A DNA stretch of 63,170 bases, the filler included, from Globobulimina sp. (Eukaryota): the NCBI GenBank assembly GCA_003354225.1. It is 29 parts of 29 records of this genome, joined end to end, with 100 filler letters (N's around TTAATTAATTAA, not from the genome) between each part and the next. Parts side by side here need not be neighbours in the genome. Positions count along the whole stretch, not along the records: positions 15,285 to 17,367 come from PIVH01009141.1; positions 17,468 to 19,550 come from PIVH01009142.1; 27 more parts are not named here. The stretch is one strand, 5' to 3'. Of the stretch, positions 15,285-63,170 are shown piece after piece (the stretch's first letter is position 1; the number at the start of each line of letters is the position of its first letter). The notes below the pieces were generated by a model. That model had not been told where the DNA came from, did no database searches, and saw only the letters and a list, made by a program, of their open reading frames with translations. The translations under genes and the position numbers were made by a program.

Positions 15285-15854
15285 GGTGTCGTTCCATATT
15301 CAGTGTACACTGATTTGGGAAACGAATTTGCCTTGGTAAATCAACTAATAGGTACTCACCACCTTACCACACACGGCAGATCACAAAAAGCATATTTGGC
15401 AGAAAAGACTTTGGCTCAAATAAGGTCAAAATTAAACCGATTTTCTACTTACAAGGGAAATAAGAAAGTTTTGGACATCGGTGCCTCAATCCCTGCTATA
15501 TTGCAATCGATTAATAGCACTCCCAGTGCGGTTACCGGTCTGAGTCCAGAAGAAGCATCTTTGCCCAAGAACAGTGGAATAGTTTTTCATAAAAGGTATT
15601 CTAAGTATTTGAGAGAAAAAGCTGAAGCTGTCATAAACCCCAAGTTTCCTGTTGGCACGTTTGTAAGGGTTTCCATTCCTGACCAAGCAAACACTTTCCT
15701 CAAGAAAAGTAAACCGGGATTCTCAGAGGAAGTTTTTTCTATTTCGAAAGTGCGTGACACTTTTCCAGTTACCTACGAAGTAATCGATTCTAAAGGAACT
15801 CCTATACAAGGTTATTTTGAAGAGAAAAACCTTCTAAAAGCGGAAATTCAATAA
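15285..15854 (+). CDS. Retroviral-like (rve) integrase of Polinton type, C-terminal half
   Basis: YTDLGNEF and KAYLAEK (DDE residues), then PKFPVGTFVRVS...FSEEVF...PVTYEVID...IQGYF, typical of Polinton integrases. Confidence 0.88.
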   Translation, partial: GVVPYSVYTDLGNEFALVNQLIGTHHLTTHGRSQKAYLAEKTLAQIRSKLNRFSTYKGNKKVLDIGASIPAILQSINSTPSAVTGLSPEEASLPKNSGIVFHKRYSKYLREKAEAVINPKFPVGTFVRVSIPDQANTFLKKSKPGFSEEVFSISKVRDTFPVTYEVIDSKGTPIQGYFEEKNLLKAEIQ

Positions 15855-15862
15855 TAATAATA

Positions 15863-16615
15863 ATGAAACTTCCAGACAATTTTACCGTTTTCATCACTAA
15901 CAAAGGTGATAACATGTGGGAGCATGGTGAATTTACTGCGCAGTTACCAGAAACGTTAAAATTTGATTCACAATATTCAGTAACAGTCAAATCCCTGAGT
16001 GTCGACTTTAGTGTATTGAATATAACTCAAGATTCTGTGATCTATTATAAACCCGATGGCGAGGAAGAATATCGTGAAGTTGTCTGCAATCTGGCTAATT
16101 GTGATGTGATCGATTGCCTGCTTGCAGAACTAAATTCTCACCTCCCAGCATCTGTTAGATTGAAATTGGATGTGGTTGAAAATAACAGAAAAGTCAAACT
16201 GTTTCTAAGAGACCATGTGCATGTGAAATTTTCTGAAATTTTGGCTGACCAGCTTGGATTTTTGCATGATAAGATTTATATGGTAAACACTATCGCAGAA
16301 AGACTTCCTGACGTTTATACCATGTACAGTCCCATGTTATTATTTTGTCCCCTAGTCGCCAATCAAATAACTCATGTTGGCCCATTGCCGGTGCTAAGAG
16401 TGATTGATTTCAATGGTGAAAGGACAAATTATGGTAGAAATTTAACTTTCACATTCGACGGTAGCGATAGATGGGTAAAATTGGCAACCAGCCAATTCAA
16501 CAGAATTCCCATGAAATTCACGTGCAAAGATTTCGTAACCCCGCCCACATTCATACGTCATAGTTCTTGCGTAATCGAGCTTGTGTTTCGCCGTGAACAG
16601 CTGGCACTTTTTTAA
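15863..16615 (+). CDS. Minor capsid (penton-like) protein
   Basis: N-terminal FTAQLPETLKFDSQYSV, C-terminal PVLRVI and IELVFRR. Size and position fit a Polinton minor capsid. Confidence 0.75.
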   Translation: MKLPDNFTVFITNKGDNMWEHGEFTAQLPETLKFDSQYSVTVKSLSVDFSVLNITQDSVIYYKPDGEEEYREVVCNLANCDVIDCLLAELNSHLPASVRLKLDVVENNRKVKLFLRDHVHVKFSEILADQLGFLHDKIYMVNTIAERLPDVYTMYSPMLLFCPLVANQITHVGPLPVLRVIDFNGERTNYGRNLTFTFDGSDRWVKLATSQFNRIPMKFTCKDFVTPPTFIRHSSCVIELVFRREQLALF

Positions 16616-16635
16616 CATGATTTGTCACTGTTGGT

Positions 16636-17085
16636 ATGGCTTATAGTGGTGGACATCCGCCTAATACTGTACAGCAGAATTTTGTAAAAAAATTTGAACA
16701 TATCCTGTCTGATGGTGAGTCAACTCAAAAATTGACCAACCCATATTTTCAATATACCCACGGCTTCAACGAACCCCTGCCCACAGGTGGACATTGCGAT
16801 TCTAGTCGGGCTCTGAAAACCATAAAATTTCCAGAATTTCCCGAAAATTCCGATAATAAAAAGACTAAAAGAAAGGTAGCTAAGCCTCTTAAAGTTGCTA
16901 AAGGAGGCAAGACAAAGAAGAATAATAAAGGAGGAAATCTAGGAAAAACCAAAAAAGCGGGGACAAAAGCCAAAACCAATAAAGGAGGCCGCAAACCAAC
17001 CAAGAAAATAGCAAAAAAGACAAGAAAGTTAACAAAAAACCAAGTCCTCTCTGAAGTCAAAAAGTTGATTGCCAAAATTAAATAG
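16636..17085 (+). CDS. Lys-rich putative DNA-binding core protein
   Basis: Highly basic C-terminal half with repeated xGG motifs. Lies between penton and major capsid. Confidence 0.55.
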   Translation: MAYSGGHPPNTVQQNFVKKFEHILSDGESTQKLTNPYFQYTHGFNEPLPTGGHCDSSRALKTIKFPEFPENSDNKKTKRKVAKPLKVAKGGKTKKNNKGGNLGKTKKAGTKAKTNKGGRKPTKKIAKKTRKLTKNQVLSEVKKLIAKIK

Positions 17086-17095
17086 TACTTGCAAT

Positions 17096-17350
17096 ATGCC
17101 TCCAAAGCGACCAAGAAGAGCCACAACTCCTAAGAATGATATCCAAGTCAACATACAACCAATAGTCGACATTCCAAATCTCAACCTATTTATGAGGAAA
17201 GAATTGCAACTACAAATCCAGGAAACCCATAAAGAATCTATTTTGCCAACAGGTACACACCAAACAAATGTGTTCCAAAGTTAAGGCATTTATCGCTGGT
17301 TGTTTTTCAGGTGTAGTTCAAGAAGGTGGTGAAATTGTGTTCAATATAAA
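17096..17350 (+). CDS. Major capsid protein, 5' exons (intron 17253-17310; second donor at 17351)
   Basis: Spliced reading MPPKRPRR...LNLFMRKELQLQIQETHKESILPTG/VVQEGGEIVFNI matches the Polinton MCP N-terminal pattern (LDLF...P...GPIEF). Confidence 0.7.
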
Positions 17351-17486
17351 GTAATACTATTAATTTTNNNNNNNNNNNNNNNNNNNNNNNNNNNNNNNNN
17401 NNNNNNNNNNNTTAATTAATTAANNNNNNNNNNNNNNNNNNNNNNNNNNNNNNNNNNNNNNNNNNNNCCTTTGTAATATCGGATGG

Positions 17487-21964: not shown

Positions 21965-23914
21965 ATGCCAGCAGAAGTCGAGTACACTTGGGATTGGAGC
22001 CTTATTGTATTGTCCTACCTCAATGCTTGTATGGGTGCATGGATTGGAGTCAAATTATTATGGGATGCTCGTCATTATATCAAAAATATTAAATTTTATT
22101 TCGCTTTTATTCTCTTAGCAGCATTTGGTTTTGGATTATGTGGGGTCTGGACCATGGTATGTCTGCTTTGCATACTTTAACTTAGATTAAATCCAAGGTC
22201 TTGAATACGGCAATCTGCTGACAGCAATATACATTATTTCCGATCATAGTGTATAATTCCTGTGAACAGATTTAATCCATACGCGTAAATTCGAGGCTTT
22301 ACATGCTTGACAATACAAAACTTAAATCAATCTGTTCGACTGTTTCATTAATTAGGTGAGGCACAACGTACATTACATACTAATGTTTCTGAAGCACAGT
22401 AAACAAGTTTTGTGTACAGGTGACCCACTGTAATTAAATCATACTAACCCCGTTCCAAACACATGCATATACACAACCCATACGTCACAGCATTACACTG
22501 GAATGCTAGCATATAAATTCACGCATGTCCGAGTTACCTATGATGTGTCATTAGTACTGCTGAGTGGCGCAGTTGCAGTGATATTGGTATTTATCGGTTT
22601 CATTTATGTCAGCCAGAACATCAAAGCTCACCACAGAGAGAACCAATCCAATTATTGGAAAATAAAATTCATAAAACCAAACGCCAAGGACTTACTGCAG
22701 TGTCTAATTGGTGGCGTAATTATAGCCATAGGTGTGTCCACAATGCATTATGTTGGCATGGCAGCTCTGATAATCGATGCTACGCCAGAATGGCAAACAG
22801 GCATTGTATTCTTATCCATATTAATCGCTATTATTGTATCATTTGTTGGTTTATTGTTATTGCTGTTTATTGATGGCATTTATGGCATATTGGTGTCGTG
22901 TTTGGTCATTGGCTTTGCAGTTTGTACCATGGTATGTGTTCCGTAACAAATTCCGTAACAAATTTGTGCATATAATTACGAACAGCATTACACTGGAATG
23001 TATGCAGTAAAATATTACCAGAACAATGACACAATTTGGGTCTCCGAAGACCGTGTAGAAGGTTTTGCATTTACAGCACGAATAATATCCATTGTTTCTG
23101 GCTGCGTAGTATCAATCATATTGATTCTATATCACATCGTTAAATTTTACCATAGTAGCAGCAGTAGGATGTTTTACAAAAAACGATATGGAGACATCAT
23201 TATTGTGACAAATGTGTTTGCTTTATTCTATATCATTTTTGGTTGCGTGAATGTGCTTATTCCACACCATACCAATACTGCAGAGCATGTAGTTAATGAA
23301 TTTCTAGCATTATTCGCATTTTATGGATTATTGGCATCGTTGCTGCTGCGCTATATATTAGCATGGTATTCCATTAATTTATTAGCAACGAAGGAGCATT
23401 TGACATGGCAAACGATATTAAACTCGAAATTGGTAAACAAATCATTTTTTTTGGTAAATTACAGCAAATATGGCAATATGAAATGGTTAGCCATTAGGAT
23501 ATATCTTACCTTTGCTGCGTTTTTAATCATTAATTTTGTTTTCTGTCTGTGCGGATTTGATATTTCAGGAAGAGTTGCTATCCCATTAATAATGTTAATA
23601 TCCACATCAATACTAATCATACTGTTTTATCGCAACACGCCTTCTTCGTTTGGTGATCAATTATTTGTTTTTGGTGAGATGAAATTAATCGCATTTGTGT
23701 TATTAGTAATGTCCGCAGCCACGCTATGCGGTTTCATTTTGATTTACGACCACATTCAGTATGAAATGTATTACACGTTTCTAACCATGATATGTCTGAC
23801 TATAATTGCAATAATCCCAATAGAAATTTTATTACATAAACAGCATAACTCTCACAAACATAATAAACACTCAAAAACGACTTTAGCGCAATGTCTAAGT
23901 GGAATGGAATCGTT
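21965..23914 (+). CDS. MHYT-domain protein fused to a 7TM-like region, 3'-truncated
   Basis: Introns 22157-22490 and 22932-22985 restore WTMHYTGM and CTMHYTGM. The middle repeat is STMHYVGM. About seven more TM helices follow. Confidence 0.85.
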
Positions 23915-33082: not shown

Positions 33083-35056
33083 ATATTAAAACGTGCAAAA
33101 AGCAGTGGCAACAAGATAATAAAAGCGTGGTGTAAAAGTGAGTCAACGCGGTGACTCCTTTTTACGCTGTCTCTAGCTCATATTCCAAAAAGCAAAACAA
33201 ATTTCACCATGAATCAACATATAAACTTAACATCGTAGTGTACTTCTTTAATATTTTTATGTTTGTAACAATAAAACCACGTCTCATTCGGTAAAATTAA
33301 ACGTTTCTATACGATAATGCATCTCGTACCGTCGTCACAGTGTAACGTGAGCCAACAGACTTAGGTGCCATGAAGAACTAGTGAAACCACGTTAGTAAGT
33401 TACTAAAAAAGGACTGAGACTTTAAAAATATTGTTAACAACGTTTCTGAAAGTTACTGGTATACAAAAAGGTTATAACACCGTTTGCTTAGTTTTATCTG
33501 GTGGTCTCCTGAACTGACGACAAATTCCAGGTCCGTGGCAAATGCGTCAAATAATCAGGTCCATTCTTGAACAGACCATATAGACCTCCATAAGTTAAAC
33601 CAACACACGGTGTTATTTTTGAAACGTATGACATTCCGATACTTGTTTCCTTATCAGCGCCACCACTACCGCTTATCACCTTCAAATGTTGTTGAGCAGG
33701 GCCACATGACCTTCTGCCTGTTGGTTTAGTGCGTGGCATTGTGTTTTAACTAGTTGGGCAAGGTGCCATGGTGTAGTGTAAAGTGTTACAGTTTAAAATG
33801 TTTGTTTTACGTTAGTTTTACGTGTTTCAACGCTTTGAAAAAAGCACAGCGGAAACGCAGGAGGTTTTACTTCAAAATGTCATAAAATATTTAGTAACGT
33901 TAGTAATAGAATTGATTGATTGTTTATTTATGAAAGAAGTAATATCAGATTCCATTAATATTTGAAATATGTCCAACGGAGGCACAGACAAACCCAACGA
34001 GTGAATATTAAATGGAGGCACAGACAAACCCAGTCTGGTCAATTCAGGCACGTGGCACCACACAATTTCTCAGATGCAATCAATCAACCATTTTTTTATG
34101 TCATCGAGATGATCTGAAACCCGTTCATTCTCAACCGACAATATTCACACAACAATATCATCCACGGTCCATTCTATATTTTTCTTTGGATTCGGTATAG
34201 ACACTTTGGATACAAATGCATTGACATCAGACACGCAAGCAATAAAAGAGTCGCTTACTTCCCTTAGTTTACAGTTTCTTCATTTATTCCTCCACAAATT
34301 CGGCAAACGTTTCGCTCTCAAACTGTCACTCACTTCTTCCTCTCAAATGGATCAGTGTCTTTGGATTCCGGTTCTGAGCAATGTCCTCCTCATCCGTCTC
34401 TAAACCAAAAACTATGTAAACACCACAACATTGACAACAAAAACCAATAAAATATTGCAACACGTACTCTGTGTTTGTTCTCAACGCACCACAGTTATGA
34501 AATTTGCATTGAAAACACCACCTATAAAAGTAGCTGTAAAGGGTTGTTTTTTTAATAAAAACAGTATTGAATATGTGTCCATACGTTGTTTCTTGATGCA
34601 AAAAATGGACACCTCGGCATGCCCAGATCTTGATGCTAGTTTTTGATAATTTGTAAAATAATAAGTAATTTGTGATATTGTTGCATATATGTTTAGTACG
34701 TTGTTTGGTTTTCAACTTTTACTCCTCTTTCTTGCAAACGAGATTGTTTCTGGCTTGTACTGGCACTTCTCTACAAGTATGTGCCTACCTCAGCTTCTGA
34801 AACCAAACGCGACGACGACATGATNNNNNNNNNNNNNNNNNNNNNNNNNNNNNNNNNNNNNNNNNNNNTTAATTAATTAANNNNNNNNNNNNNNNNNNNN
34901 NNNNNNNNNNNNNNNNNNNNNNNNGTGCAGCAAAGAATTTACCATCAATGGTGAAGTAAAATATCGATTTTTTTCGAAAGAAAAAAACAACAACTTTTAT
35001 TAGAATGAAGCTATCATGATGCCATCGTCCACTCGATCGATGTATATTTGAGTCTC

Positions 35057-36504
35057 TCAAGGCATTATATTTTCGAATTTGACTTGTCTAACATTCCCAC
35101 TTTCCAGAGCAAGCAATGTAAACTTACGCTCATATTCTAGCATAGCCAATACTACAACATTATCGTTGGTAGGCCTGCTAAAATGTATCATAAGTTCGCA
35201 GTTACCGGTACCCATTTTCCCATATGGGATCGAAGAAGTGTCGTGACCAGGACTAGTATCGAACGCATATATGGCATATCCGCTGTCATAGTCTAGAAAG
35301 TCTATCGGCCCCACCTGAACATCGCCCAAACCTTGCCCAAGTTCTTTGAACAAACCATAATATGGTTGTGAGTATATTTCTTTCGCGTAATCCATTTTGT
35401 ACCCTCCACCCATAGGTTTATCCGCAGAGTTTACACGAACAACTACATTGTCTACTTTAAAGTTTCGAAATTTCAAACGGTTTCTCGTCAGTTTTCCATT
35501 GTATGCTGCTTCCGAAACCATTGCAATGATAACTCTTTTCGGTAAAACACCATTTGCTATTGTCGCCGGGCCAAAATAACTTAGATTTTTGTCATGAATC
35601 ATGTGAAGCATTTCTCTATGCACATAGGGATAAATCGCCTTAGGCACCGTGCTCTGTTTTGGCCGAATTCTCCCCACTTCGAGATTGGCGTCTATAATTT
35701 CAATAAGATAATCTGGCAACACTGCCGGTGCCCCAGTTTTGTGGTACTTCAAACAGGAATTGGGATCGTGTGGGAAAAAGGACAGCCCGATATCGACTCC
35801 GTCCAGAATTGGTTTGCTGACTTTGAGACAATCGATCAGTAACGGACCCTTCATTTCGACCTCCTTGGACTTTTCTACTCTGTGCGCTCTCCAGTGAGCA
35901 CCGGGGTTTAGCATTGTGATATTTGGGTCTACTAGATCGAACGCGCCTGCTTTGTCTTGATTCCAAAGAGCCATTTCCAACACCGTTTTCTTCATCGAGT
36001 GGGGTGCATTAAGCAAAATTCCAAGATATGCCAAATGTTGGTATTGTTGATGAGTTGTGTACACCGTCACTCCATTGAAGTCAACCATAATATCCTTAAA
36101 AAATCGATTTGAAAATGGTCGAAGCTACAAAGAGTGTAGACATACCTTGAACATAGTGTACAGAAATCCGCAGTAGGGTGCAACTTTTTCTCCGTCCGGT
36201 AATGCGGTTTTGGTGCCATCCGCACCGCGCTTCCATATTTTGAACTTTAGGTACAGTACCAAATGATTTGGGTCGATGTATTCTCCTTTTATCGACTTTA
36301 TCAGGAACCTGAATGGTGTTCCAGAGCCTGATATTGGCATCTTTGTTATGCATGGCAGAGTTTCTACAGTGTAATTTTGAACAAAGTCATCTACACCGTT
36401 TTCTGTGGCGAACTAAAAAATGATACATGAAAGATATTGAAATTATGATGAGTGTAACAAAAATGTACCATATCGTTCGCCACGCTTTTCTTTGTTCTAG
36501 GCAT
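35057..36504 (-). CDS. Major capsid (double jelly-roll) protein, 3 exons, 446 aa
   Basis: Exons 36504-36469, 36412-36146 and 36094-35057, with phase-0 introns of 56 and 51 nt. Motifs YIDPNHLVLYLKFKI, LPKRVIIAMVSEAAYNG, FRNFKVDNVVVRVN and GYAIYAFDTSP. Confidence 0.88.
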
Positions 36505-36646
36505 TTTTGTTAATTCGACGTTTTTTATTTTGTTTAAATTGATGAGTGATTTTTCTTTTTTGTTTAGGCTTAGGTTGGGGAGATTGAGAAGTAAAAGGTT
36601 TTATTCCAAATTTTAATAAATCGTCGCCACGTACAAATACGGCCAT
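36497..36646 (-). CDS. Small basic protein (49 aa), putative core protein
   Basis: MAVFVRGDDLLKFGIKPFTSQSPQPKPKQKRKITHQFKQNKKRRINKNA. Its stop overlaps the MCP start. Below the ORF-track cutoff. Confidence 0.5.
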   Translation of the reverse strand: MAVFVRGDDLLKFGIKPFTSQSPQPKPKQKRKITHQFKQNKKRRINKNA

Positions 36647-36712
36647 AATTGACTTAATACAAGTTGAGCAGGTTTATATACAAATGTGCATCATATATCA
36701 TCTCCCTTTTCA

Positions 36713-37005
36713 TCATGATTCATCATCAGCTTTCACAAAATGAAGCACCACAAACAAGTAACCATCTTTCATTTGTAATGGCTGATTGACACTGTTTGTC
36801 AAGCATACTTCCACTTTGCCCGATACATCTCCTCCAAGCCATTTGTGGTATGTGGGGTTCGATTTGTGGAATTCGATCGAATCCCCTGCTTCGTACAGCT
36901 TTGTATCTTCAGTGATCTCTGTCAGAGCTCTTACAATGGTGTTGTTGGCTAGAATGCCTTGAATGTTTTGGGAGATTAGATACAATATGTTATAATAAGA
37001 ATTGT
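36713..37005 (-). CDS. Minor capsid (penton-like) protein, C-terminal fragment
   Basis: NPTYHK...VEVCLTNSVNQPL...VVLHF matches the Polinton penton C-terminal pattern. Confidence 0.7.
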
Positions 37006-45829: not shown

Positions 45830-47248
45830 AAAGAAAAAGAGATAATTCGATTTAAAATGTTTAATAATTTCTATTATTGGAAAGAATATAAAAATAAACA
45901 AGAATTTGATAGCAATAATGCAGGATATAAATATTGTGATTTATATGTTTTTGGTAAATATTCAAATTTAAAAGATGAGATATTGAATAACGAAATATTT
46001 AAATTAAGAACAAATGGAATAAATAAATGGAACAAAATAAGATTTAAAGCAATAATATATTTAAAAACATTTGAATTTCAAAATAATTACAAGTCAAAAG
46101 AATGGAATTATGGAATACCAAAAAATGCAAAATTAAATATTCAATACCTAATATCATTGATTTTATATTGTGATTTTACAAAATTATCTGCACGATTTAG
46201 AGAAACATATATTCCGCAACATTCAAAAGAAACTTTATGTGAAATCAAAAAAAGACATGAAAATTATTATTGGCTTGCAAAAAATTTAACTATTTTGGTT
46301 CAATTATTTGGTAATACGCTCGATTGCCATTGTAATGATGCTGATAAATATTTTTATCATTCGATAAATATTCCAATTTCATTCAATTCAATTATTTGTA
46401 GATTCAATCATTTATATTCAATGACATCATCAATCGAAGTCGCTGCTGCTTTCTCAGTGAAAAATGGTATTTTAATAAAATTAAAATCGTATAATTGTAA
46501 ACATAATTATTTTAATTTAAATTTAATCAGTTCGTTTAGCAGTGAATCGGAGAAATTATTCATAGGATATGATAATAATATTAATCTACAAATTTATGAT
46601 ATTATTTTATGTTCAAATGGTAACAAATATTTTGAATATTTGGCGGCATTAAATATATTTATGAGTGCAATGAATGGTGAAACAAATCAAGAAATGAATG
46701 TTTTTAAAAAAATAAAAAAAATAATAAAATCAATAATTAATGATGAAATGAATAAATTTGATAAATATTTTGTGTCAATTTTAGAGAGATACAAATTGCG
46801 CAAAGAAATTGTAATTATTGATTTATATTTGATGAAAAAAAAGCATATTTATTCGTTTATGTCTGGTTATTTTTTATCATCGTCAACATCTTCTTCACTT
46901 AAATATGTCATTAAATTACATATTTTATCAAATTTATTTAAAAATTTAAAAAAGATTATTATTACAAATGGTTCCGGTTATAATCATAATCATATTGTCA
47001 TTTCACAGCATTATTTAACGTATATTTTATCTTCGTTATTATCATTGATACCAAATTCATTGAAGAAATTGAAACAAATTAAAATGAGAAACGTAAAATG
47101 TGTAAAGAATAATAAACAAACAATAAATGGTTTAATTCAGCAATTTAAACCAAAATATAAATCACAAATTGGATTCCATCTTTACACAGAAAACATATTA
47201 TTCCAAAATACTCAATATTACACTTTATTTCTTGTTAAAACAAGCTAG
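45830..47248 (+). CDS. Hypothetical protein with ADP-ribosyltransferase-like motif spacing
   Basis: ILYCD...FRETY, FYH, SMTSSIEVAAAF, GILI and ESEKLF (H/R-S-ExE arrangement). Confidence 0.5.
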   Translation, partial: KEKEIIRFKMFNNFYYWKEYKNKQEFDSNNAGYKYCDLYVFGKYSNLKDEILNNEIFKLRTNGINKWNKIRFKAIIYLKTFEFQNNYKSKEWNYGIPKNAKLNIQYLISLILYCDFTKLSARFRETYIPQHSKETLCEIKKRHENYYWLAKNLTILVQLFGNTLDCHCNDADKYFYHSINIPISFNSIICRFNHLYSMTSSIEVAAAFSVKNGILIKLKSYNCKHNYFNLNLISSFSSESEKLFIGYDNNINLQIYDIILCSNGNKYFEYLAALNIFMSAMNGETNQEMNVFKKIKKIIKSIINDEMNKFDKYFVSILERYKLRKEIVIIDLYLMKKKHIYSFMSGYFLSSSTSSSLKYVIKLHILSNLFKNLKKIIITNGSGYNHNHIVISQHYLTYILSSLLSLIPNSLKKLKQIKMRNVKCVKNNKQTINGLIQQFKPKYKSQIGFHLYTENILFQNTQYYTLFLVKTS

Positions 47249-49651: not shown

Positions 49652-49660
49652 GGCTTATTT

Positions 49661-50090
49661 ATGGCGTTTAGTATTTCCTATCAATTTATAGCACATGACC
49701 TGTTCACGCGAGTATCATCTAGAATGGTGAGCTCGCTGAATCGAATAAACGATTCCTTACGACGAACCCACCAAGCATCTCAATCTGTAGCACGTTCTTT
49801 TGAGCACATACGCAGTGTTGGCTCTCAAGCTTTCGTTGGCTTAACTCTACCTCTAATGGGTATAACAGCTTTTGGTTTCAAAGCAGCAGCTGCGTTGGAG
49901 AGGTTGCAGGTCACCATAAGTAGTGCCACAGGTTCCACTCAGATGGGACATGAGATGCTTCAAAAATTCATAAAATTTGCTGCTACAACACCATTCCAAA
50001 TTGAAGGTGTCGCCGAAACAGGTAAAATGCTACTAGGCTTTGGCATCAGTACAAAAGAAGTAATGGGTACCATGAGAATGCTCGGTGACA
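49661..50090 (+). CDS. Phage tail tape measure protein, N-terminal part
   Basis: GLTLPL...FAATTPFQIEGV...LLGFG...LGD, a typical tape-measure domain. Confidence 0.88.
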
Positions 50091-57112: not shown

Positions 57113-58536
57113 ATGCCAAAGAGAAACAGGAAAGGACGCAAGCAGACAAAACATGCCCATAAAAAGCACAAAACGAATCAAGCATCAAATCAACAAAACT
57201 TGATCGATATCCTACATCAGGTATCGTTATAATAAATTCATCATCGTATAATTCGTATTTTTGATGATATATCAAATTAATTATTTGCTCCCATTATGGA
57301 CAGACTATCATTGTTTATAACGCAGGAGATAAGAATGTAAATGGTGTCTATCAACACAAATGTTTGGAAGAAGATTATTTTGAGAGAATTGGCTCGATTC
57401 AATCCTACAAACATTCAAATCTCATGCAACAAAAAACAAACAATACCTCAAATAATATTGAACCTAAACAAGAAACAAAACAACCACAAAATACTGACGA
57501 TAAACATACAGAAACTCCGTCTAAATCCGTGGGTAAATTTGAAATAGATCGCCATGAATATTTGAAAAACGCAGATGACATTCCCGATGCAGCAATAAAT
57601 AAATCGGGAGCATGGATAATTTCACGTGTTGACGTCCACCCAAAACAACTGTTGTATGCCGTTAATTGTCCATTTAAACAGAAAATAAAAACAAACGGAT
57701 GGATTGTATTAAAAGACGGATCCAATCCAGCTCCAAAGATAAAACTATTTGAAACAAAGCAAGTAGGAAACGATGAAGATAACGATGTGGATATGGATAG
57801 AAAGCAAAAAAAGAAGAAAGCAGCAGATAATATACATGATGCAATAAAAGAGATACGTAATGACCATCGCAATGCAAATAAATTGAATAAAATGCAGTTA
57901 AAAGCACTGCAGAGTGCAACGAATAAAAAGAATAAAAAAAATGGCAATAAATTAATGATTGTATCAGGTGGACAAAGCGGGGTTGATAGGGCTGCTTTGG
58001 ATGTCGCAAAAACATTAAATATTGCGTATAGTGGCTGGATACCGAAAGGGAGAAAGTGTGAGGATGGAGTTATTGATGAGGTTAAATATGGGAATTTAAA
58101 GGAATGTGATTCTGAGGAATATGCGGTGCGGACATTGTTGAATGTGGTGGATAGCGATGCCACATTGATATTGAATATGGGCAAATTAGAGGGAGGCACA
58201 TTATGTACAAAGAAATATGTGTCGCAGAAAAATAAAGATTTAATGTATATTACATTGTTTCCAAAGGAAGATAAGGATGATACTAATGAAGAAGAAAAAA
58301 AAATAAATAACAATGAGGATGATAGGGATGAGTATGTATTGAATTTAGGGTTTTCAGATGGCAGAGCACAGCGAGTGAGTGAATGGATACGCTGTAAAAA
58401 TATAAAGGTATTGAATGTTGGTGGACCGCGAGAGAGTGAAAGGAAGGGAATTTATAATGAGAGTGTTGAATTTTTAACCAAGGTATTGAAGAATTTTAAG
58501 AATGGTAATATTCCACGTAAATGTCTGTTTGGATGA
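57113..58536 (+). CDS. Protein with C-terminal circularly permuted YpsA SLOG (putative molybdenum carrier) domain
   Basis: Intron 57221-57303. IVSGGQSGVDRAALD, GWIPKGR.CEDG, RT..NV.DSDATL, GGT and LNVGGPRES. Confidence 0.85.
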
Positions 58537-61678: not shown

Positions 61679-63170
61679 ATGGCAACAAACATACCGTTCG
61701 TAGATTTCGAAAACCAAATAACACCATACAGCAAACCATGGTACGCACCATTTCGTGCACAGTGTGAAAAATTTCTAAAGGATATAATTTCTCCAAACAT
61801 TAACAAATGGGAAAAACAAGGGTCATTACCAAAATGGGTATATACCAAAGCGTATGAATATGGCGTCTACACTCCAGATTATCCAAATAAACACGGTGGC
61901 CAAGCCTGGCAAAATCATAAATGGGATTATTTCATGGACATAATTCGTACGGATGTATTTGCCAAAGCAGGTTCTGGCGGTCTATTCACCTCATTATACG
62001 TGCATAAAATATCCGTACCCCCGGTCTTATATTTTGGCAGCGATGAACAAAAAGAATTATTTATCCCAGTACTGCAAGGAAAGAAAATTGCTGCATTAGC
62101 AATATCCGAACCAGGTAAGAAAAATGACACATGCATAACATTTATTTTTACACACAAAAAACACCGAAAACACTACGATAGGGCATGGTTCCGATGTGGC
62201 CGGAATAAAAACAACGGCCAAATTGAAAACAGACGCAAGCGGACAATATTACACCGTCAACGGCATGAAAAAATGGATCAGCAACGGCATGAAAGCAGAT
62301 TACTATGTCACTGCAGTACGTACGGGCGGTGCGGGAGTGGCTGGTGTCTCATTATTGATCATACCAAACATACCCGGCCAAGTTATAACTTCCCGTATTC
62401 AGACGCAAGGGCATAAAATATCTGAAACCACCATGATAATATTCCGTAATGTGCGAGTGCCAAAATCGTACTTAATTGGTGTGGAAAATGAAGGCTTCAA
62501 GTTAATAATGTTCAATTTTAACAGCGAGCGATTAGGCATAACCATGGCGGCCAATGGGTTGGCAAAATGTGCTTTCATCGAAGCCTTACAATATGCTCAG
62601 AAACGGCAGACGTTTAAACGTGCTCTGATAAAACACCAAGTGATTCGCCATAAACTGGCGGAGTGTGGTCGCAGAATCCTAGCGACGCAATACTTTGTGG
62701 AGAAGCTGGCGTACGAACTGACCAATGATCGGCTAGCGCAGCAAAACAGTACGTTAGCAGCCAATATTTGTTTATGCAAAGTGGACGCGACGCGGACGAT
62801 GGAATTCGTGGCGAGAGAAGCCTCGCAAATATTAGGTGGTGCGAGTTATGTGTTGGGCGGCAAGAAAGTGGAGCGAATCTATCGCGATGTGCGCGCTTTA
62901 GCTATCTATGGAGGCTCAGAAGAGATTATGTTGGATGTGTCGCTACGGTTAGCATTGAAGTCGTCGCATAGCAATGCTGATAACTTACCGTATGCTGATT
63001 GGCAAAATCATCTCTCGACTCCCAAATATTACAGCGAAAACCACCATAAATTCCGGGCCATAATGAGTGACTATGTGGAGAAGGAGATCTTGCCAAACAT
63101 AGATAAATGGGAAAGGAATTGGAGTATGGACCGAAGCGCATATCGAATTGCATATAAATACGGGGTCTAC
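61679..63170 (+). CDS. Acyl-CoA dehydrogenase continuing into a second ACAD unit, 3'-truncated
   Basis: LAISEP/GHGSDVAG across intron 62115-62181, NGMKKWISNG, R.TF, QILGG and IYGGSEEIM. No stop before the contig end. Confidence 0.92.

Follow-up and report, generated by a model that had tools for sequence, protein, structure and literature searches.

The 3' end of one contig of the AT-rich Globobulimina sp. assembly (fragment 7, 15285-17367) carries the start of an apparent capsid gene and raises the question of whether this gene can be read only after introns have been removed from its transcript. The major capsid proteins (MCPs) of Polinton/Maverick elements were defined by Krupovic, Bamford and Koonin in 2014 (PMC4028283), and two surveys justify their calling by open reading frames (ORFs) with the statement, in the accessible parts of both texts, that endogenous viral genes are without introns (PMC10120064, PMC9356565). 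The original prediction for fragment 7 was that a 58-nt intron and the start of another one interrupt the capsid gene, that a distinct capsid gene of the same assembly ('fragment B') has its introns at other positions, and that both genes gained their introns independently and mainly at the 5' end. A possible role as a splicing switch for late genes, or as a feature that enhances expression, was suggested for them.

The window analysed here is the whole stretch of 63,170 nt. It consists of 29 separate contigs of 2,080-2,084 bp each, which are sorted by size and do not form one locus. The joints are N44-TTAATTAATTAA-N44 spacers, in which the linker is a six-frame stop. Because the contigs were joined artificially, any feature crossing a spacer is an artefact. 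A Pfam scan of the 51 long ORFs in the window returned mainly eukaryotic cellular genes, including P-type ATPase, SET, EHD, DnaJ, RCC1, C-type lectin and acyl-CoA dehydrogenase matches, and no pPolB, rve integrase, packaging ATPase or adenain-like protease. Bacterial-type domains (MHYT, cpYpsA SLOG and a sub-threshold tape-measure match) were seen among the eukaryote-like contigs at 22434-22943, 57268-58533 and 49652-50089; these could be contaminants or transferred genes. Two long ORFs on the plus strand were without a Pfam family, one of 693 aa that fills its entire contig (50191-52269) and one of 472 aa on a contig with 25% GC (45830-47245).

The probable capsid module at the end of fragment 7

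The features of fragment 7 are the following.

15285-15851, plus strand: 5'-truncated, uninterrupted ORF of 189 aa, upstream of the capsid module
15863-16615, plus strand: putative penton-like (minor capsid) gene of 250 aa, intronless
16636-17085, plus strand: Lys/Arg-rich ORF of 149 aa between the penton-like gene and the MCP gene, called by reading frame and composition
17096-17252, plus strand: MCP exon 1 with the ATG at 17096, 52 codons plus 1 nt, ending ...CCA ACA G
17253-17310, plus strand: predicted MCP intron 1, 58 nt, GTACAC...TTGTTTTTCAG, phase 1
17311-17350, plus strand: MCP exon 2, 40 nt, reading G-VVQEGGEIVFNI-K with the conserved I-x-F-x-I motif
17351-17367, plus strand: start of candidate intron 2, GTAATA..., phase 2, cut by the contig end

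The ATG at 17096, the 58-nt phase-1 GT...AG segment and the second exon were all present where they had been predicted. Without splicing, the frame closes after ...LPTGTHQTNVFQS at 62 residues. When only intron 1 is removed, an in-frame TAA at 17352-17354 ends the protein at 66 aa. The GTAATA at 17351 had been proposed as a second donor placed ahead of this immediate TAA, and both are found in the sequence. This second intron is a candidate, of which the first 17 nt lie on the contig (which ends at 17367); an acceptor and a downstream exon would lie beyond it. A T-rich tract precedes the AG of 17253-17310. The AT fraction of the intron is 0.62 versus 0.61 for the exons, so that the intron is not more AT-rich than its surroundings.

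The genes in front of the MCP gene had been described as an integrase and a penton gene without introns. All three upstream ORFs are intact and uninterrupted, in agreement with the second half of this description, and the alignment of the penton-like ORF to its single homologue P0001 (40% identity) takes in 98% of the ORF. The label of integrase was not supported in Pfam, in the PDB sequences or by long homologues. For the product of 15285-15851, there was no match in Pfam (also at E <= 10), PHROG, the PDB sequences or the search for long homologues; it may resemble the end of an rve-type integrase. Pfam and PHROGs returned nothing for the fragment 7 proteins, including the product of 16636-17085, which matched no family in either.

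The gene at 15863-16615 is called penton-like here as a lead, from its position, one unnamed homologue and a language-model search. P0001 is annotated merely as 'hypothetical protein'. The language-model look-alikes, likewise a lead, were viral clusters with the Sputnik V18/19 minor capsid protein and DUF5901, and a single-sequence fold of the protein had a pLDDT of 32. The intergenic gaps at 15852-15862, 16616-16635 and 17086-17095 are 10-20 nt only. Therefore, either the capsid promoter should lie within the genes in front of it, or several genes share one long transcript.

Excision of 58 nt restores the match to the capsid family

Homology was scored with a profile of 110 full-length capsid relatives (437 positions). 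In a six-frame scan of the window, the unspliced ORF 17069-17281 was the third-best match after two exons of fragment 16. It covered profile positions 13-41 in the N-terminal part with an E value of 1.5, which is not significant. When 17253-17310 was excised, the score rose from 3.0 bits for exon 1 alone to 12.7 bits, and the alignment extended without a gap to profile positions 13-51. Exon 1 aligned to positions 13-38 and exon 2 to positions 39-51. The spliced product agrees with the family consensus at L-x-L-F, Q, P and I-x-F-x-I, and the spacing P-x8-[P/E]-I-x-F-x-I is preserved only with exactly 58 nt removed.

Other excisions were then compared. There are 45 possible GT...AG excisions, of which 35 were scored. 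The excision of 17253-17310 was at the top with 14.0 bits, and the next one reached 8.7 bits. Arbitrary excisions (18,435) were also scored: among the best 12 products listed, nine had lost 58 nt and three had lost 55 nt, and in every case the cut lay no more than a few bases away from 17253-17310. When the downstream 115 nt were dinucleotide-shuffled with exon 1 kept fixed, none of 400 shuffles reached 14.0 bits (maximum 13.3, median 5.4). Exon 1 alone was aligned by hhalign in the same register (E 0.0096, probability 4%).

These results bear out the claim that excision joins the reading frame into a capsid-like sequence, with 12.7-14.0 bits for the best GT-AG excision against 3.0 bits without it. 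The match to the profile rests on 65-66 visible residues and, because 65 residues is all there is, the support is real but modest. Exon 2 of fragment 7 had no exact match in metagenome contigs, and no relatives of P0009, P0004 or the exon of the stretch were found in scans of viral and metagenome contigs.

A second capsid gene in fragment 16

The 'fragment B' of the original prediction is fragment 16 (34925-37005), which is read on the minus strand. It has the following features.

36716-37003, minus strand: putative penton-like gene, C-terminal 96 aa, called by position and cut by the contig end
36497-36646, minus strand: small basic (Lys/Arg-rich) ORF of 49 aa that at its end overlaps with the start codon of the MCP gene
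36469-36504, minus strand: MCP exon 1, 12 codons, start at 36504
36413-36468, minus strand: predicted MCP intron 1, 56 nt, GTACAT...TTTTTTAG, phase 0, after codon 12
36146-36412, minus strand: MCP exon 2, 89 codons (the stop-to-stop piece 36128-36412 matches profile positions 23-99, E 1.2e-13)
36095-36145, minus strand: predicted MCP intron 2, 51 nt, GTATGT...TTTTTAAG, phase 0, after codon 101
35057-36094, minus strand: MCP exon 3, 345 codons and TAA (profile positions 96-425, E 5.7e-94)

Exon 1 is needed in this model because it supplies the start codon upstream of the conserved N-terminal region. With both introns removed, the frame is open for 446 codons and scores 371.8 bits over profile positions 22-425. 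The unspliced frame meets a stop after 37 residues, and the frame with only intron 1 removed after 107. As judged from its predicted exons and the modelled fold of its family, the MCP gene of fragment 16 is a complete, intron-bearing Polinton-type capsid gene.

Fragments 7 and 16 share their gene order, with a penton-like gene followed by a small basic ORF and the MCP gene, which lends independent support to the MCP assignment in fragment 7. Both MCPs begin with MP and then a basic stretch. The Lys/Arg-rich ORFs of the two elements may encode a DNA-binding or DNA-condensing core protein, and we regard them as candidates for this. BLASTP found no similarity between the penton-like proteins of fragments 7 and 16, in keeping with the prediction that they represent two distinct elements. 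The Polinton hallmarks (pPolB, ATPase, protease, a confirmed integrase and TIRs) are absent from both 2-kb capsid contigs. A word-indexed search for longer homologues of the fragment 16 exon found none.

Fold of the capsid family

When 1.84 billion representatives were searched with the 343-aa ORF in exon 3 of fragment 16, 2119 relatives were found at E <= 0.001. The full length in this family is about 420-460 aa, and the 343-aa query aligns from about residue 100 on. Ten clusters were looked up, of which nine were unnamed and the tenth was P0001. None of the members looked up had a Pfam match passing the threshold, PHROGs likewise gave nothing, and the PDB sequence search gave no useful match.

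The closest full-length relative, P0004 (35% identity), was modelled by AlphaFold from an alignment of 108 sequences, with a pLDDT of 92.3 and a pTM of 0.91. When the model was compared to the PDB by Foldseek, the top matches were the mavirus MCP (6g44, 5e-14), PBCV-1 and Sputnik (3j26). The mavirus and Sputnik MCPs are thus the best solved-structure matches of the family model, at about 10-11% sequence identity. To our knowledge, the MCP genes of these virophages are expressed without spliceosomal splicing. Against BFVD, the matches were the Cotesia bracovirus protein R9XLG5 (1e-21), adomavirus LO7, virophage MCPs, an adintovirus protein and many NCLDV MCPs. R9XLG5, the best match in this database, is an uncharacterised protein, and its origin fits the presence of Maverick-derived genes in bracovirus proviral DNA. 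A language-model search pointed, as a lead, to clusters of DJR-like domains from molluscs and arthropods and to viral capsid clusters. According to the model, the family of the fragment 16 gene has the double jelly-roll capsid fold.

Positions and type of the predicted introns

On the profile, the introns of fragment 16 fall at about positions 17/18 (phase 0), within NDM|F, which is the L-x-L|F motif, and at about position 99 (phase 0). In fragment 7, the first intron falls at codon 53, profile position 39 (phase 1), and the candidate second intron at codon 66, profile position 52 (phase 2). Neither gene has the visible introns of the other, and the LxLF motif is split in fragment 16 only. The predicted difference of the intron positions was therefore confirmed.

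The further claim of independent gains holds in part. In 122 of 154 database relatives, the N-terminus (profile position 25 or below) and the rest of the protein lie in one uninterrupted ORF. Because of this proportion, an intronless ancestor with later gains is the simplest reading, and gain rather than ancestral presence is plausible from the sequences. The visible introns stand at non-homologous positions, and 'independent' applies to these: the gene of fragment 7 is seen for 66 codons only and could share the second intron of fragment 16 further downstream. The predicted concentration at the 5' end stands for fragment 16 alone, where both introns lie within the first 101 of 446 codons.

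Some of the relatives begin late. Fifteen of the 154 start at profile positions 66-126, and eight of these start with a Met at 96-109, bracketing the second intron site of fragment 16 at about 99 (P0003, P0011, P0105, P0095, P0134, P0005, P0020 and P0052). Such a start is what a prokaryotic gene caller would yield from an intron-bearing relative, and these eight sequences may be gene calls of a 3' exon only, made from intron-bearing genes.

The three complete introns all start with GT, end with AG and have a T-rich tract ahead of the AG. By their termini, their 3' tract and the restoration of frame and homology, they are probably U2-type (GT-AG) spliceosomal introns. We looked at cellular genes of the same assembly for comparison. 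In the acyl-CoA dehydrogenase (ACAD) gene, where the interval is pinned by Pfam coordinates, the only possible GT-AG intron has 67 nt (62115-62181). The interval in a GTPase (GNL) gene is wider and ambiguous, with ten candidate introns; the two shortest ones that use a donor at the end of the upstream ORF have 61 and 67 nt. Thus, the one cellular intron that is uniquely pinned is also short (67 nt).

Several other origins of the interruptions were considered and rejected. Copies of an introner are not indicated, as the four introns are mutually dissimilar and have no other copy in the 63-kb stretch. A self-splicing group I or group II intron or a structured RNA was rejected since neither fragment has an Rfam match at E <= 1; the group I and group II types are also excluded because 51-58 nt is far too short. 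A variant code with TAA as a sense codon was rejected, as TAA closes both the penton-like ORF of fragment 7 and the MCP gene of fragment 16 at the point where the homologues also finish. TAA therefore acts as a true stop in these elements, so that a variant code cannot let the TAA at 17352 be read through. The 58 nt have a GGT codon on either side, but translational bypass from one to the other was rejected as well: the other introns lack such a codon pair, and the ends have the form of canonical splice sites.

Sequence variants around intron 1

The fragment 7 stretch is present in one of three contig runs of the same sample. This run, X1, consists of contigs of one low-depth sample that is possibly the source of the stretch, so the run is not independent of it. 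Two variant paths were found over 17244-17329 with depths of 2.74 and 2.30, which are not comparable with host depth. Five substitutions and three insertions of one base distinguish them, every one located at 17274-17299 inside intron 1, and these differences may be a single mutational event. The shared flanks, 533 nt upstream (without differences) and 68 nt downstream, have about the summed depth. The identity of the flanks is partly an effect of construction, as variant paths in contig graphs share their ends, and only the placement of the variable stretches within predicted introns was counted.

Another X1 contig tracks the stretch up to 17353 and diverges directly thereafter, so that it retains the GT(A) proposed as second donor. 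In both cases, the variation is placed within a predicted intron, a location that supports the introns weakly. A 241-nt contig of X1 extends past the end of fragment 7 at 17367. The variants look like two alleles or two very recent copies.

Discussion

From the observed sequence features, the homology restored by excision, the capsid fold of the family and the differing intron positions, we infer actual splicing, nuclear expression, an endogenous status and the gain rather than loss of introns. The explanation that we consider probable as a whole is the following. The sequence at the end of fragment 7 would be the initial 66 codons of a double jelly-roll MCP gene of Polinton/Maverick type, which belongs to a tightly packed capsid module. 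The U2-type intron of 58 nt at 17253-17310 would interrupt the coding sequence, as would, very probably, another one that starts at 17351. The element would be transcribed in the host nucleus, and the full capsid protein would be made only from the spliced mRNA, as unspliced RNA would stop at 62 residues and RNA without intron 1 at 66. A second, unrelated element in fragment 16 would show the same arrangement with two introns elsewhere. The introns would be lineage-specific gains because most relatives are uninterrupted, acquired in elements that exist alongside the machinery for nuclear gene expression in a short-intron host and are most likely integrated (endogenous).

This explanation has to be weighed against three others. 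The contigs might derive from an exogenous polintovirus- or adintovirus-like virus that replicates in the nucleus and uses splicing for late-gene expression. In adenoviruses, splicing is part of late-gene expression. The genes of the two contigs are packed in a virus-like manner with 10-20-nt spacers and overlapping genes, neither contig has a host flank, and the nearest structural matches include adintovirus and adomavirus proteins. However, the two X1 variants of about equal depth (2.74 and 2.30) with flanks of summed depth look like alleles of one locus. This argument is a weak one, and we regard an exogenous virus as unlikely but worth keeping in mind.

A decaying pseudogene, in which the 58 nt would be an insertion or a scrambled stretch, the TAA at 17352 a premature stop and splicing would not occur, is in our view very unlikely. 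It is true that the gene is visible for its first 66 codons only and that its frame closes twice within 260 nt; most endogenous Mavericks are mutationally degraded and have intron-like insertions in spliced alignments, according to the accessible portion of PMC8097293. But only one excision of 58 nt restores both frame and spacing; its ends are precisely GT and AG, and a T-rich tract leads up to the AG. All three ORFs next to the gene are intact, and the GT at 17351 is kept in both X1 variants. In addition, fragment 16 has the same type of interruption twice in an otherwise flawless 446-aa gene. That the ORF at 17096 is no capsid gene at all, with a 13-14-bit match by chance and a coincidental GT...AG, is highly improbable. 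The match covers few residues, that of exon 1 by itself is not significant and one shuffle of the null reached 13.3 bits, yet none of the 400 shuffles attained the observed score. Moreover, it is the N-terminus of the profile that is matched, in register with the start codon, the gene stands behind a penton-like gene and a basic ORF exactly as in fragment 16, and the proteins of both fragments start with MP and a basic stretch.

The preferred reading, a capsid gene that is spliced in the host nucleus, can be compared to several known systems. Like the Polinton/Maverick MCPs, the genes described here belong to a family with the double jelly-roll fold and a length of about 440 aa, lie beside a smaller, putative penton-type gene and are found in eukaryote assemblies. 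Unlike in the account of these MCPs in the accessible text of PMC4028283, where the words intron, exon and splic- are absent, the coding sequence here is interrupted by GT-AG introns of 51-58 nt. Intact vertebrate Mavericks are described as intronless in the available part of PMC8097293, and so are the core genes of the Caenorhabditis plicata Maverick in that of 10.1101/2022.07.12.499685. Our elements resemble both in being virus-like with a capsid module, with a presumed endogenous status, but differ in that the MCP should need splicing.

Introns in mobile elements have precedents. Introners were found in Maverick-Polinton-like elements of dinoflagellates, which are similar to our case in having spliceosomal-type introns inside Polinton-like elements; from the accessible text (PMC11957031), those introners are multi-copy and transposon-derived, whereas our four introns are mutually unrelated and the complete ones have 51-58 nt. 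Ginger1 DNA transposons carry 1-4 GT-AG introns in the transposase gene and are thus another example of canonical introns in a mobile element's own gene, according to the part of PMC2836005 that is accessible. That gene encodes a cut-and-paste transposase, whereas here a virion structural gene is concerned. In some cryptophyte PLVs, the short gene that directly precedes the MCP gene contains group I introns, as stated in the accessible section of PMC12220804. Our literature search found no report of short spliceosomal introns in Polinton/Maverick capsid genes, although such a report may be in print. That the Polinton-type capsid genes described here need spliceosomal splicing is credible from the sequences at hand, with intron 1 and the difference in position as the parts that stand.

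A more far-reaching idea is that the gain of 5' introns in capsid genes is adaptive and recurrent, such that co-resident Polinton-like lineages independently make capsid production dependent on splicing. We consider this decidedly doubtful. If it were true, the introns could label the transcripts as 'self' in a host where foreign RNA without introns is silenced or poorly exported; alternatively, splicing could gate the late production of virions.

As the case comprises two 2-kb contigs known from their DNA sequence, our finding should be taken as a starting point for a targeted survey rather than as a finished result. Its significance is mainly practical, for surveys, besides being a lead on the expression of the elements. 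If the capsid genes of some lineages carry short introns, the ORF-based or prokaryotic gene callers commonly used in surveys will truncate or miss them, and the eight Met starts at 96-109 hint that intron-bearing capsid genes may be commoner than ORF-based surveys can see. Intron-bearing structural genes would show that the elements are expressed via the nuclear pre-mRNA pathway of the host. This bears on whether such elements are long-term residents of the genome that are still able to make virions.
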